Source: Candidatus Aenigmatarchaeota archaeon
GTDB taxonomy: Archaea > Aenigmatarchaeota > Aenigmatarchaeia > GW2011-AR5 > JAGGXF01
Assembly: GCA_021157845.1 (NCBI GenBank)
Contig: JAGGVU010000006.1
Location: 4,070 to 68,069, forward strand
Direction of reading: 5' to 3'
Length of the DNA: 64,000 nt
Shown here one piece after another: positions 45,077 through 48,030 of the stretch (position 1 is the first letter of the stretch; each line of letters begins with the position of its first letter). The notes beneath the pieces are model-generated. The model was not told the origin of the DNA, did not search any database, and was given only the letters and a program-made list of their open reading frames with translations. Both the position numbers and the translations under genes were made by a program.

Positions 45077-45270
45077 TGGGCCCGACGGGATTCGAATTCG
45101 CGGGCTGCATTACAGCAATGCGGTGCAGCCTCCCGCGACACCCGGCTTAAAAGGCCGGTGCTCTAGCCAGATTTCCCGAAACAATTACGCAGGTAATATG
45201 CATCTTTTCTCCAGAGCTTTGATCTCTTTGATTGGCGATTGAGTCAAAGATCCGCCTGAGCTACGGGCCC
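45077..45270 (-). tRNA. tRNA-Lys (anticodon UUU) with two non-canonical introns (D-loop and T-arm)
   Basis: Minus strand: GGGCCCG-TA-GCTC-AG[~87-nt intron]TCTGGCT-AGAGC-A-CCGGC-CTTTTAA-GCCGG-GTGTC-GCGGG[35-nt intron]TTCGAAT-CCCGT-CGGGCCC-A. Confidence 0.7.
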
Positions 45271-45273
45271 AAG

Positions 45274-45441
45274 CGCCCTAGCCGGGATTTTCACCAACCT
45301 TTTCTTTTCCCATCCAAGGCTTTTCTTTTTTAAAAGAAAAGGGTTGGATTTGAACCCGGGTCGCAGCCTTTCTGCTTTTGGTAAACCTTTTCAAAAGGCT
45401 GGTCGACAGGGCTACATGCTAGTCCACTACACCACCAGGGC
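45274..45441 (-). tRNA. tRNA-Asp (anticodon GUC) with an anticodon-loop intron and a T-loop intron
   Basis: GCCCTGG-TG-GTGT-AGTGGACTA-GCAT-G-TAGCC-CTGTCG[intron]A-GGCTG-CGAC-CCGGG-TTCAAAT[intron CCAACCC...GGTGAAAAT]CCCGG-CTAGGGC-G. Only 3 nt separate it from tRNA-Lys. Confidence 0.65.
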
Positions 45442-45613
45442 ATATCCTATGAAATTAAATTTAAACTATTAATAATTTTCTTTTTTCATCAAAACTCATC
45501 TAAAGGCTATAGCACTAACTAATTTATTAAAAATTCTATAATTGGTAAGATAAAGGAAAGTACTAATAACTCTAAAAATCCCAATAAACATCATATCCCT
45601 CTGATAAGCATAA

Positions 45614-45731
45614 AGATTAGCAACGTCTTGGATTTCCCGACAAAGTCAGTACTGTCCAAATCGCTAGAGGGCTTAACTTCTGTGTTCGGAATGGGAACAG
45701 GTGTACCCCCTCTGCTTTGGTCGCTAATCAG
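45614..45731 (-). rRNA. rrf: 5S ribosomal RNA (stand-alone, not linked to 16S/23S in this window)
   Basis: Minus strand reads ...GGTACACCTGTTCCCATTCCGAACACAGAAGTTAAGCCCTCTAGCGATTTGGACAGTACTG... (universal 5S loop C/helix III motif CCGAACACAGAAGTTAAGC), with complementary termini GATTAGCGAC/GTTGCTAATC. Confidence 0.85.
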
Positions 45732-45943
45732 TAAACAATTTAAGCCGAAATACATTTAAACCTTTCGGAACCCGTTTTTGTGTGGTGATGCAAGAAATAT
45801 CTGCAGATATTAGAAACCTGTATCAAATATTTTGCTTAAAACATTAAGTAAAAGCTCACGCAGTTGCTGCTTATAAAAATATGGAGTTTGCCATCGTAAA
45901 ACAAACTAGACAAAAATGCGTAGTTACATAATTAAAAAAAAAT

Positions 45944-46167
45944 CCCGCGAGTGAGATTTTCACAACTTTTCTCTTTTCCATTCAAGATTTTCTCTTTTTA
46001 AAGAGAAAAGGTTGAGTTGAACTCACAACCTTTCGGTCTCTGAGCGATTGCTGGAATCGTGTATGGCAAAGCAATACACGCTACAGCCGAACGCTCTGCC
46101 AATTCTCCAAACCCATTAATGGCTTTTGCCAATGTTCTTAAAGGGTTGTGATTGAGCTATCGCGGGA
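45944..46167 (-). tRNA. tRNA-Tyr (anticodon GUA) with three introns (D-loop, canonical 37/38, T-loop)
   Basis: CCCGCGA-TA-GCTC-AA[intron]TTGGCA-GAGC-G-TTCGG-CTGTAG[intron]A-CCGAA-AGGTT-GTGAG-TTCAACT[intron CAACCTTTTC...GTTGTGAAAAT]CTCAC-TCGCGGG-A. Confidence 0.65.
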
Positions 46168-46239
46168 TTAATACTAAACAAATACTAAAGAAAGAAAACT
46201 TAAAAAGATTTTTTTATTCCCTTTCACACATTATTTTGT

Positions 46240-47613
46240 TTACAACCCTATTTTTGGCCTGCTTGAATAAGTTTTCAGTGAATGACCAGCTTTTTTGTGT
46301 GAAATAGAAGCACGCGGCAACTTTATTTCACCCTCAACACCAACAACTGATTTTAATTTGTAAGATAAAAGACGAATCTCGCCAGGCTCAAATTTCCTTA
46401 GCTTCCATACTAGTCTTGCACCGGCTTCATGCTTTTTGACAACAGGCTTTGGACCTTTCTCTACTACTAATGAAAATATGCTTGGAACAAAATCCTCTAT
46501 AATAACGCCAGATGCAACAGCCCCGGAATTGTTTTTAATTTCCAAACCAACTGTAAACTCAGCCCCTAAACGTATGCTCTTTTTTTGCATTATGAATTTT
46601 CTGATTTTTAAAATTTTTATCCGATTAAAATAAAACCATATAAGAAATATGAAAACAATTATCAATGCAATCAGACCAAAATAATTTATTTGATAGTTGA
46701 GAATTTTTTCTTCGCCCGGCGCCAATGTATTTATAACCCATATAACTTCGTTGCCTTCTATTTGTCCATTACCAAAATAGAAATTTTTACTTATGCCATG
46801 TATTGGCTCTGTTACCCTTATATTTTTTGCCTCTTCATTACCATAGTTTTTTACGATTATTTTTTTATCCAAACCAAAAAGAAGGCGCGTCTGCTCTTTT
46901 TCTATTTTCACAATTGGTAATGCTTCAACAGTAAAGGATGCTCGCTTCTCTTCTATCCCGACCAATCCCTTGCTTAAAGTTGCTGCAACTATATATGCAC
47001 CAGCATATATGTTTTCAGGCAAGCTAATTTCCTTTTCAAATATTTTTTCTTCACCTGCCTTTAATTCATCAATCTTATATTCAAATGATGATAATGTTGT
47101 CTTTCCATATACCTTTGAGAAGAGTTTTAGGTTTTTTAAAGGAATTGTTCCTTCGTTTTTTACACCAAATGTTAGCTTAATAGTTCCCAAAGGCTTTGCC
47201 TCGCCCTCTACTTTTATGGTGTCAATTGTTACGTCATATTTATTTTTTACCTTAATTAATCTTTCAATTGTCTTCTTTTCTTCTCCTGCTGTCTCTACAT
47301 TTATCTTTATCTGATAAACCTTGGCATCAACGTCTTTCCCAGGAGATATGTAAAGTTTTACTGTTTTTGAATTGAGAACATTTGGAGCATAATTTTCAAG
47401 GGTGAACCATGTTTTCCAGCCATCTATTGTTATGGAAAAACGTCCTGCCTCGTCTGTAGTTATGAGTATATTAAATACACCCTGGCTGCCTTTTTCAACC
47501 TCCAGAACATTTGGCGTTACGTTGACTGAAAAATCAGCAAAAGCAATACTGACAAACATAGCAACGAAAATGCAGAATAATAAATATTTTTTCATTCCAA
47601 CCATCAAAGCCAC
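46240..47613 (-). CDS. Secreted/membrane protein with a signal peptide, beta-rich ectodomain, one central TM helix and a basic cytoplasmic tail (457 aa)
   Basis: ORF; signal peptide MKKYLLFCIFVAMFVSIAFA; central helix LIALIIVFIFLIWFYF. Confidence 0.6.
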   Translation of the reverse strand: MALMVGMKKYLLFCIFVAMFVSIAFADFSVNVTPNVLEVEKGSQGVFNILITTDEAGRFSITIDGWKTWFTLENYAPNVLNSKTVKLYISPGKDVDAKVYQIKINVETAGEEKKTIERLIKVKNKYDVTIDTIKVEGEAKPLGTIKLTFGVKNEGTIPLKNLKLFSKVYGKTTLSSFEYKIDELKAGEEKIFEKEISLPENIYAGAYIVAATLSKGLVGIEEKRASFTVEALPIVKIEKEQTRLLFGLDKKIIVKNYGNEEAKNIRVTEPIHGISKNFYFGNGQIEGNEVIWVINTLAPGEEKILNYQINYFGLIALIIVFIFLIWFYFNRIKILKIRKFIMQKKSIRLGAEFTVGLEIKNNSGAVASGVIIEDFVPSIFSLVVEKGPKPVVKKHEAGARLVWKLRKFEPGEIRLLSYKLKSVVGVEGEIKLPRASISHKKAGHSLKTYSSRPKIGL

Positions 47614-47829
47614 CTACCATTTAAACTATAATAAAATATGTTTTTGTCTGTATATAAATGTTACTTTTTGGGGCATGGGTATATTTTATGCTCGATGAGA
47701 AGTTGATTGAAATAAAGGACTCACCGGCATCGCCGCATATTGTTTTGGCTGAAGGAATATCTTTTGTCAATAGATGTTGAAAAGATTTGCTTTTTGAATA
47801 TATAAATGCGGCATCATTTGTTAATTCAA

Positions 47830-48030
47830 AGCCCCAGGCGAGAGTTGAACTCGCGACCTTTACCTTTCCAAGGGACAACCTGTGGTTCCCCTTTTTGTTT
47901 TTGCTAAAGATTTTACGCGAAGCGTAAAATGCTTGTTACCAAGGTAACGCTCTGCCAATTTCCCTGACTGCTTTCCGCTGGCGCTTTTTTTTGTTCGCGA
48001 AGCGAAAAGGGCCAACTGAGCTACTGAGGC
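47830..48030 (-). tRNA. tRNA with D-loop and anticodon-loop introns; anticodon probably GGU (Thr) if the intron is at 37/38, alternative UGG (Pro)
   Basis: GCCTCAG-TA-GCTC-AG[~58-nt intron]TTGGCA-GAGC-G-TTACC-TTGGTA[~70-nt intron]A-GGTAA-AGGTC-GCGAG-TTCAACT-CTCGC-CTGGGGC-U. Confidence 0.5.

Follow-up and report, generated by a model that had tools for sequence, protein, structure and literature searches.

When ARAGORN reports no tRNA gene in 64 kb of archaeal DNA, are the genes truly absent, and if not, what hides them? The stretch analyzed here (the window) is 64,000 nt of contig JAGGVU010000006.1 (positions 4,070 to 68,069) from GenBank assembly GCA_021157845.1, a Candidatus Aenigmatarchaeota archaeon. 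Our reading, to which we give a probability of roughly 0.85, is that the window holds functional Aenigmatarchaeota tRNA genes, each carrying two or three introns of the bulge-helix-bulge (BHB) type, and that seven of the 15 introns come from a single proliferating family with a hairpin core.

The raw window yielded 0 tRNAs with ARAGORN, and the intron option of that program called none of the six raw tRNA precursors. Rfam at its gathering threshold reported 5S rRNA alone in the window; permissive thresholds added a single sub-threshold partial tRNA match, within the Lys gene, and otherwise noise. Exons were rebuilt by hand, then verified computationally by in-silico splicing and ARAGORN. The precursors are GC-rich tRNA exon pieces alternating with AT-rich inserts (45077-48030, minus strand; 29533-29754, plus strand). 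With 15 insertions removed, ARAGORN calls all six genes, Tyr(GTA), Asp(GTC), Lys(TTT), Thr(GGT), Arg(GCG) and Trp(CCA), and in each a canonical cloverleaf with the expected anticodon is restored. A first-pass annotation of the same DNA had listed five of these genes, 168-224 nt long, in the two regions just given, with a query on the fourth; in-silico splicing confirms all five and identifies the fourth as Thr(GGT), and the further claim that every tRNA in the window has two or three introns holds for six of six, including Trp, which had not been listed. When every non-coding gap was scanned independently for a 7-bp acceptor closure combined with a T-arm, five of the six genes came back and no other credible candidate appeared. 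The exception was Lys, an expected miss given its split T-arm. An acceptor-closure match at 58514-58678, and the other large gaps, were rejected as tRNA genes since they contain no tRNA-like exons.

The six genes carry 2.5 introns per gene, with a minimum of two in any gene. Insertion positions are 15/16 (four introns), 21/22 (one), 37/38 (five), 53/54 (one) and 59/60 (four), so that ten of the 15 are non-canonical (15/16, 21/22, 53/54 or 59/60). Intron lengths range from 34 to 172 nt, and no group I, group II or other Rfam family matches any of them at E ≤ 1.

The strongest argument that the inserts are introns comes from relatives. The Asp-Lys gene pair upstream of rpoB is syntenic across 39 Aenigmatarchaeota species. 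The Asp ortholog has no intron in L021, L022 and L038, and the Lys ortholog none in L022 and L028. ARAGORN detects the relatives' Asp-Lys genes only when they are intron-less or have at most a short anticodon-loop insert (L021, L022, L025, L028, L038 and a few others). Elsewhere there are one to three insertions, at about 15/16, 22/23, 24/25, 37/38 and 59-61, and spliced alignment with the mature sequences of the window shows the exons to be conserved. Because the same exons occur with zero to three introns in syntenic orthologs, the inserts are most likely introns of orthologous working genes. The Asp-Lys comparison further shows that introns are actively gained and lost across the phylum.

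The junctions were compared with a BHB topology in which each strand has an outer helix, a 4-bp central helix, a 3-nt bulge and an inner helix, cut after the second bulge nucleotide. All four introns at 59/60 (Tyr, Asp, Trp, Arg) have the strict form with both flanking helices (hBHBh'): four of four central pairs, the T-stem as a 5-bp outer helix, and inner helices of 2-6 bp directly at the bulge that extend to long helices in minimum free energy (MFE) folds. Unconstrained MFE folding of arm plus intron gives, for all four, the T-stem, symmetric 7-nt (4+3) strands and a long inner helix; in the Trp intron the complete BHB forms. The Lys 53/54 intron and the 37/38 introns of Asp, Arg and Thr are near-strict. 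The five 37/38 introns have three or four central pairs stacked on the anticodon stem, those outside Asp, Arg and Thr having three of four. D-loop junctions have a relaxed BHB with two or three of four central pairs, which implies an endonuclease of broad specificity. The first-pass annotation was right in placing introns in the D-loop, at 37/38 and in the T-loop, as in-silico splicing and the BHB motifs both show, but it put the T-loop introns after the seventh loop nucleotide. The register chosen by the BHB restores a 7-nt T-loop, and therefore these introns follow the sixth (59/60); correspondingly, the final T of the intron end given there as GTGAAAAT belongs to the exon.

The introns also share sequence. 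Alignment of the window introns gave the consensus ACCCTTTTT-(variable)-AAAAAGCTTnAAnGGAAAAA, common to D-loop, anticodon-loop and T-loop introns. A composite regular expression matches the window 16 times (10 distinct sites), where dinucleotide shuffles would lead one to expect 0.84 matches, and every match is intronic and on the sense strand. A metagenome scan with the pattern CCCTTTT-N(4-30)-AAAAGCG-NNNN-CGGAAAA found this module on at least 120 contigs (at least 136 sites). It is about 40 nt long, NRR-CCC-UUUU-[variable top]-AAAA-GCG-YYN-R-CGGAAAA, and makes up one unbroken stem that includes a conserved C.C mismatch and is followed by a conserved purine tail. From the base upward there is a 3-bp covarying helix, a C-G pair, the C.C mismatch, a second C-G pair, a U4/A4 stem and a variable top; the 3′ tail is R-YGGAAAA. 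The basal helix joins the 3 nt before CCC to the 3 nt after GCG, in columns that the scan pattern leaves free. In 133 instances among the matches listed, its three positions are paired in 96%, 98% and 95%, against 79%, 72% and 38% with shuffled partners. The outermost pair shows the four Watson-Crick types in about equal shares, and the next position outward is unpaired. Pair 4-43 is AU in 18, UA in 17, CG in 16 and GC in 16. Covariation scored on an alignment of 72 sequences reaches 0.328, compared with 0.103 in shuffles, none of 500 reaching the real value, and slid registers score at most 0.067. Nucleotides 1 and 4 after GCG are nearly always complementary as well (C..G, U..A or U..G in the metagenome instances L040-L159), though the fourth lies outside the basal helix.

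A covariance model, R1, was built from the 72 metagenome sequences, with no window sequence included. It has 10 window matches at E ≤ 0.023, all intronic and in sense orientation: five in Trp and one each in the Thr 15/16, Asp 59/60, Arg 59/60, Tyr 59/60 and Arg 37/38 introns. These ten copies are distributed over seven of the 15 introns, and the best non-intron match has E=0.2. Five introns (both of Lys, and the 37/38 introns of Tyr, Thr and Asp) have no significant match, and the D-loop introns of Arg and Tyr and the T-loop intron of Trp are weak or degenerate members. The shared intron family that had been proposed for the window is thus upheld by alignment, by the excess of pattern matches and by R1, and it is larger than had been suggested, but it does not take in every intron; the Lys T-arm intron, which had been grouped with those of the T-loop, is a 53/54 intron, and in sequence neither Lys intron is related to the family. 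Nor is the family private to this genome: its module occurs widely in the tRNA and rRNA introns of archaea.

When whole window introns were aligned with MAFFT, RNAalifold found no consensus structure in them; the structure is seen only after anchoring on the conserved blocks. Rfam 15 had no match over any module copy at E ≤ 1 in the window or at E ≤ 10 in 44800-48300, bar a spurious sub-threshold Flavo-1 hit, and the searchable literature, queried also with motif strings and for DPANN and Aenigmarchaeota tRNA introns, contains no description of the module that we could find. Readings of the module as a kink-turn (K-turn), box C/D or box H/ACA RNA were rejected, the boxes being in the wrong order and at the wrong spacing. 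We rejected on geometric grounds a triple helix of the purine-motif type in which the tail would bind the U4/A4 stem, as the linker is too short once the basal helix has formed. In single cases such as L084, pairing of the CGGA or UGGA of the YGGAAAA tail with the T-loop UUCG or UUCA is suggestive of a vestigial or alternative 3′ splice site, the tail itself being fixed by the metagenome pattern.

In T-loop hosts the 5′ splice site is 3-4 nt before CCC, and the intron therefore begins with the basal helix of the module, which starts at the first intron nucleotide or one after. In the MFE folds of the four T-loop introns of the window, the 5′ strand of the module pairs with a distal complement to give the long BHB inner helix. 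Around module copies in general, a strict hBHBh' was found in the scanned register for 9 of 126 among the matches listed, against 1.1 expected.

Four of the genes lie at 45077-48030 on the minus strand. The tRNA-Thr(GGT) gene (47830..48030, 201 nt) has two introns, and ARAGORN calls its spliced product. Intron 1, in the D-loop at 15/16 (47959..48015, 57 nt), contains the module (R1 match 47968-48017, 32.4 bits, E=4.6e-8), and its junction is ambiguous over a TTGGC repeat. Intron 2, at the canonical 37/38 (47866..47936, 71 nt), shows no significant module match. Its central helix, UUGG/UUGG, consists entirely of G-U pairs stacked on a 5-bp anticodon stem, and its fold z-score is -2.67. A CCTTGG junction repeat would also permit reading the gene as Ser(GGA), which the 5-nt variable region rules out.

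The tRNA-Tyr(GTA) gene (45943..46166, 224 nt) has three introns and a C1-G72 pair, and is called by ARAGORN after splicing, as are the Asp, Lys and Arg genes. Its 15/16 D-loop intron (46103..46151, 49 nt) is a degenerate family member (ACAACCCTTT...GGGTT) with a relaxed BHB of 2 central bp. Its 37/38 intron (46038..46080, 43 nt) is outside the family and has 3 central bp and a 5-bp outer helix. The 59/60 T-loop intron (45957..46015, 59 nt) bears the module (R1 match 45971-46018, 17 bits, E=0.003) within a strict hBHBh', GUGAG-UUCA-[AC|U]-CAAC...GUUG-UGAA-[AA|U]-CUCAC, where brackets enclose the bulges and the bar marks the cut. The Tyr 37/38 intron holds in addition an internal, strict-looking BHB, AGCG-[UG|U]-AUUGCU...AGCAAU-CGCU-[CA|G]. 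It was rejected as a splice site, since its use would leave a 14-nt anticodon loop, and it is either a chance occurrence or the trace of a nested intron.

The tRNA-Asp(GTC) gene (45274..45441, 168 nt) has two introns. The one at 37/38 (45370..45403, 34 nt) has a 4-bp central helix, CUGU/GCAG, stacked on a 7-bp outer helix. The one in the T-loop at 59/60 (45288..45348, 61 nt) contains the module (R1 match 45302-45349, 21.5 bits) in a strict hBHBh', CCGGG-UUCA-[AA|U]-CCAACC...GGUUGG-UGAA-[AA|U]-CCCGG. The neighboring tRNA-Lys(TTT) gene (45077..45270, 194 nt) also has two, both outside the family: an 84-nt D-loop intron at 15/16 (45172..45255), with no R1 match and 3 central bp (GCUC/GGGA), and a GC-rich 35-nt T-arm intron at 53/54 (45097..45131), with 4 central bp and a 7-bp inner helix (CGCG-[GG|A]-GGCUGCA...UGCAGCC-CGCG-[AA|U]).

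On the plus strand, the tRNA-Arg(GCG) gene (29533..29754, 222 nt) has three introns. That at 15/16 in the D-loop (29548..29588, 41 nt) gives a weak R1 match (29547-29583, 11.2 bits, E=0.22). That at 37/38 (29611..29659, 49 nt) contains the module (29608-29643, 14.3 bits, E=0.023) and has 4 central bp, UUGC/GUAG, with a 6-bp outer helix. The third, at 59/60 in the T-loop (29681..29740, 60 nt), likewise contains the module (29678-29716, 20.2 bits), within UCGGG-UUCA-[AA|U]...UGAA-[AU|U]-CCCGA.

The sixth gene was reached through the motif: three AACCCTTTT matches at 52-nt spacing in the gap 26310-26831 led to a tRNA-Trp(CCA) gene (26345..26784, minus strand) of 440 nt with three introns. It was missing from the first-pass gene list, although GGTAACCCTTTTTGC, a motif quoted there, comes from it. 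Intron 1, in the D-arm at 21/22 (26618..26762, 145 nt), contains 2.3 copies of a 52-nt tandem unit, 100% identical according to Tandem Repeats Finder (TRF), each a module copy; R1 matches are at 26724-26767 (47.2 bits) and 26672-26715 (46.8 bits), and the BHB is CUGG-[UA|A]-CCCUUU...AAAGGG-AUAG-[AU|G]. Intron 2, at 37/38 (26430..26601, 172 nt), contains 2.5 copies of a 50-nt unit, 98% identical (TRF) and again each a module copy, with R1 matches at 26565-26603 (45.1 bits) and 26515-26553 (48.4 bits) and a partial one at 26476-26500. Intron 3, in the T-loop at 59/60 (26359..26408, 50 nt), has the strict hBHBh' that unconstrained MFE folding produces: T-stem, 4-bp UUCA/UGAA helix, two 3-nt bulges and long inner helix. 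The 3′ part of the Trp anticodon intron (26430-26500, minus strand) reads GCGUCAAU-CUGA-CUGGAGCGU-UGAUGG-U-CUGA-CGACCAG-AUGA. By inspection this does not fit a box C/D RNA, which would have C (RUGAUGA), D', C' and D (CUGA) in that order with guides of 10-12 nt; the order CUGA..UGAUGG.CUGA..AUGA and the 1-9 nt spacing are both wrong, and Rfam gives no snoRNA or C/D match above noise in the intron. A CUGGAGC in the same intron is a 7-nt complement to the anticodon loop and stem of its own gene (GCUCCAG).

Among the relatives, R1 has 23 matches in 12 of the 39 loci. The module there stands directly after tRNA junctions, for example GCTCAG|TAAG-CCC, CTGTCA|TGA-CCC and GGTTCGAAA|GA-CCC. Copies are also found in the tRNA-Lys 3′ trailer before rpoH, a few nucleotides past the discriminator base, in L003 (8087-8127), L010 (1733-1770), L037 (1232-1272) and L013 (about 2699-2745); the Lys trailer of the window itself has none. 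One tRNA-Lys intron of L037 contains an inverted, back-to-back module pair (1048-1088, plus; 1090-1133, minus), the clearest antisense copy within a tRNA gene.

Farther afield, the contigs that host the module range from 29 to 70% GC, and about 75 of the 136 sites among the matches listed are in or just after a span with acceptor closure and T-arm, as found by a permissive scan whose false-positive rate is uncontrolled. In about 40 of these the T-arm is a textbook GGTTCRA and the gene measures 120-250 nt. We ran Rfam on 20 unexplained metagenome contigs. L139 has two module copies in an archaeal 16S gene (914-958 and 1550-1594) that is 1803 nt long against a 1478-position model, and L054 carries the module within 23S (minus strand, within 1-1839). 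These 16S and 23S insertions are about 68-70 nt, without open reading frames (ORFs), and bounded by perfect BHB motifs; therefore one intron core serves both tRNA and rRNA hosts. In L045 and L131 the module is in intron-bearing tRNAs that Rfam can still detect. L053, the one contig with rpoB, has only 43% RpoB identity to the window, and the module is therefore not confined to Aenigmatarchaeota. Tandem or closely spaced copies occur in L057, L127, L150, L158 and L040. A viral collection of 2.9 million contigs gave three matches.

Some copies are in less familiar settings. L040 and L158 have a 73-nt repeat array that is in no recognizable tRNA or rRNA gene. In L050 (696-735, plus) the module is in an archaeal 16S-23S spacer, on the strand opposite the rRNAs. 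Copies in L051, L053 and L091 are flanked by sequences of the type GGTGATCTC...GTGATGAGAGA, which include box-C-like strings, in a host RNA that we could not assign. On L161, a 5-kb contig of the viral collection that is putatively viral or integrated, the module (709-739, plus) abuts a duplicated tRNA 3′ segment (GGGCCCGGAGGGATTTGAAC twice) and is antisense to that tRNA; the arrangement is reminiscent, in its sequence, of an attachment-site duplication.

How would such genes be expressed, and how would their introns have spread? Knowledge of archaeal splicing (PMC4033280, PMC4090602, PMC5829648) suggests that each tRNA gene would be transcribed whole as one long precursor. At each BHB or relaxed BHB, EndA would cut both of the 3-nt bulges on either side of a 4-bp helix, each time behind the second bulge nucleotide; in that helix the last exon nucleotides before the 5′ splice site would pair with the 3′ end of the intron. 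An RtcB-type ligase would then join the exons, and the introns would be released. The family has probably spread by copying between positions in a gene and between neighboring genes, and by tandem duplication inside introns, possibly through reverse splicing and copying into DNA, recombination between introns, or slippage. Module identities are 92% between the Trp D-arm and anticodon introns, 82% between the Arg anticodon and T-loop introns, and 87% between the Tyr and Asp T-loop introns; together with the 98-100% identical tandem units, they support copying between positions and genes, and in this respect the ongoing intron transposition that the first-pass annotation had suggested gains support.

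Since the module is found in tRNA introns, in 16S and 23S introns and in tRNA 3′ trailers of other archaea, it behaves like the conserved core of a proliferating lineage of BHB introns, one that is mobile or has been copied again and again. We tentatively raise the possibility that it is the core of a cross-phylum mobile BHB-intron RNA element that would move among tRNA loops, rRNA genes and trailers, for example by reverse splicing, with the C.C stem and tail as a putative protein-binding site serving mobility or the stability of the excised intron. Alternatively, the module may be a functional RNA that the cell uses, either as a platform to which proteins bind or as a small RNA that splicing sets free and that is stable and perhaps circular; introns and trailers would then be convenient sites of expression. 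Once excised, archaeal introns are circularized, and in Haloferax the intron of tRNA-Trp codes for a box C/D guide RNA. The three contexts of the module are all highly transcribed, its copies in the window are always on the sense strand of the host RNA, and its sequence blocks (CCC, GCG with the C.C, YGGAAAA) and covarying helix are kept across hosts with 43-69% RpoB identity and 29-70% GC. We nevertheless find a functional RNA somewhat doubtful: it has no recognizable K-turn, C/D or H/ACA motif and no Rfam match, its number varies from zero to five copies per gene with absence from orthologs in relatives, which is more typical of a dispensable element, and its tandem multiplication looks like slippage rather than selection.

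A different origin would be at the DNA level, the insertions being miniature inverted-repeat transposable elements (MITEs) or derivatives of IS200/IS605, and the genes either pseudogenes or saved by chance spliceability. A short imperfect hairpin with a conserved mismatch, in many copies and several contexts including intergenic trailers, is what such elements look like, and the inverted pair in the L037 intron (1048-1133) and the L161 copy beside a duplicated tRNA 3′ segment fit as well. We consider this origin very improbable all the same. Every significant copy in the window is intronic and on the sense strand, and in T-loop hosts the module keeps its 3-4 nt distance from the 5′ splice site; removal of the insertions restores a perfect cloverleaf in six of six genes, Trp and Tyr included, and the Asp-Lys loci are orthologous and syntenic to genes that are intact in relatives. 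The junctions fit BHB geometry more often than chance would allow, and the five introns without a significant module match are BHB-bounded too. No transposase was seen among the window ORFs scanned, and the scan of 2.9 million viral contigs gave only the three matches.

Several observations weigh against our reading of proliferating BHB introns in working genes. The D-loop junctions, with only 2-3 central bp, also have weak flanking helices, and no EndA- or RtcB-type endonuclease or ligase gene is present among the scanned window ORFs. The trailer copies in L003, L010, L013 and L037 mean that the module is not strictly an intron element. Module-bearing introns hold T4-T5 runs, with sense-strand T5 runs numbering six within introns of the Trp gene and two within those of Arg; they resemble archaeal RNA polymerase termination signals, which would be costly inside a gene. 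(Downstream of the genes, T tracts range from T4 to T8, with T8 after Tyr, T6 after Trp and T4 after Arg.) Conservation of CCCTTTT, AAAAGCG and CGGAAAA in the metagenome set is there by construction, the scan pattern having enforced it. A purely structural role at the splice site leaves unexplained the C.C mismatch, the YGGAAAA tail and the complementarity of nucleotides 1 and 4. A two-state switch, in which the 5′ strand of the module would always have a second, distal partner for the BHB inner helix, was rejected as a general rule, since in a fixed register such a partner is found in 19 of 127 against 17 with shuffled partners. Finally, the 98-100% identity of the Trp tandem units would suit a repeat mis-assembly in a metagenome-assembled genome (MAG), since short-read assemblers can miscount tandem copies, and the 52- and 50-nt units, hence the 440-nt gene length, might be such an artefact. 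We think this unlikely, as tandem or adjacent copies recur independently in L057, L127, L150, L158 and L040 and in the relative L037. Even with one unit per Trp intron, the gene would keep its three introns where they are, and the main conclusion would be unaffected.

The identity of the host is consistent with the gene content of the window. Its ORFs include archaeal RpoB, RpoA'/A'', EF-2, S7, SecY, SRP54, PCNA, Rad50/Mre11/HerA and CDP-archaeol synthase. The window's RpoB shares 62-69% identity with that of the 39 species representatives, and those with a phylum name are all Candidatus Aenigmatarchaeota MAGs; with a GC content of about 36%, the earlier description of the host as AT-rich and DPANN-like was accurate. 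A 5S rRNA gene (45615..45728, minus strand; Rfam RF00001, 83.9 bits) lies between tRNA-Tyr and tRNA-Asp. A single ORF of 3915 aa occupies 2075-13822 (minus strand), followed by a 478-aa beta-helix/TSP3-repeat protein; the ORF probably encodes a giant surface protein of a type common in DPANN genomes.

Multi-intron tRNA genes with copied BHB introns are already known from the Thermoproteales. There too, one gene may contain as many as three BHB introns, often at non-canonical positions; different tRNA species have similar intron sequences in common, which implies copying, and standard tRNA finders miss the genes. Thermoproteales are hyperthermophilic crenarchaea, whereas the host of the window is a mesophile-like DPANN archaeon of 36% GC. 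With tRNAscan-SE 2.0, Thermoproteales average 0.84 introns per gene, the maximum being 71 introns in 46 genes in Pyrobaculum calidifontis, with at most three per gene (PMC8450103); the 2.5 per gene of the six window genes compares with that mean of 0.84 and with about 1.5 as the highest reported. We found no description of a covarying hairpin core, of its sharing among deeply divergent archaea, of its presence in both rRNA introns and trailers, or of intronic tandem copies.

In DPANN archaea, endonucleases have been linked to increased tRNA gene disruption and incomplete tRNA sets (Kaneta et al. 2018, PMC5829648). Disrupted tRNA genes in genomes with the ARMAN-2 epsilon2 EndA or L3-loop alpha4 EndAs (PMC5829648; Fujishima 2011, PMC3239211) have non-canonical introns like those here, and a broad-specificity endonuclease is presumed. 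The first-pass view that such an architecture is not known from DPANN-like genomes was therefore too strong, given Kaneta et al., though we found nothing in the literature specific to Aenigmatarchaeota: the DPANN surveys covered Micrarchaeota, Pacearchaeota, Woesearchaeota and Nanohaloarchaea, not this phylum, and did not report a conserved intron module. Archaeal 16S and 23S BHB introns are known from Thermoproteales (PMC4496867), and the L139 and L054 inserts are likewise BHB-bounded; they differ in being about 68-70 nt long and ORF-less and in having a core in common with tRNA introns. A common intron family spanning tRNA and rRNA hosts was not found described in the literature. The box C/D guide in euryarchaeal pre-tRNA-Trp is also a structured RNA inside a tRNA intron, and the Trp gene here has CUGA and UGAUGG strings; unlike in that guide, the boxes in the window are misordered and misspaced, and the module has no K-turn signature or Rfam match. 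New, then, are the host phylum and intron density, the defined covarying hairpin core, and its spread, outside Rfam, over tRNA and rRNA introns and trailers.

ARAGORN and the Rfam tRNA model miss six of six window genes and most of the syntenic Asp and Lys genes in 39 relatives. The 'missing tRNAs' of DPANN archaea, and the inferences of completeness or host dependence drawn from them, may therefore partly be artefacts of intron load. If the six genes are representative of the genome, 2.5 introns per gene would exceed the most intron-rich archaea described. The gain of protein-spliced archaeal introns is an open question that a defined, covarying family could make testable, because this one spans tRNA, rRNA and distant archaea, has near-identical tandems, and is present or absent at orthologous sites. 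It is feasible to count the copies of its module, to date them and to map them onto host trees. If the mobile interpretation is true, archaeal protein-spliced introns would for the first time have a mobile family that is defined in sequence and supported by structure, and intron gain would have a direct handle. The R1 covariance model can be used to find hidden introns, and thus hidden tRNA and rRNA genes, in uncultured archaea.

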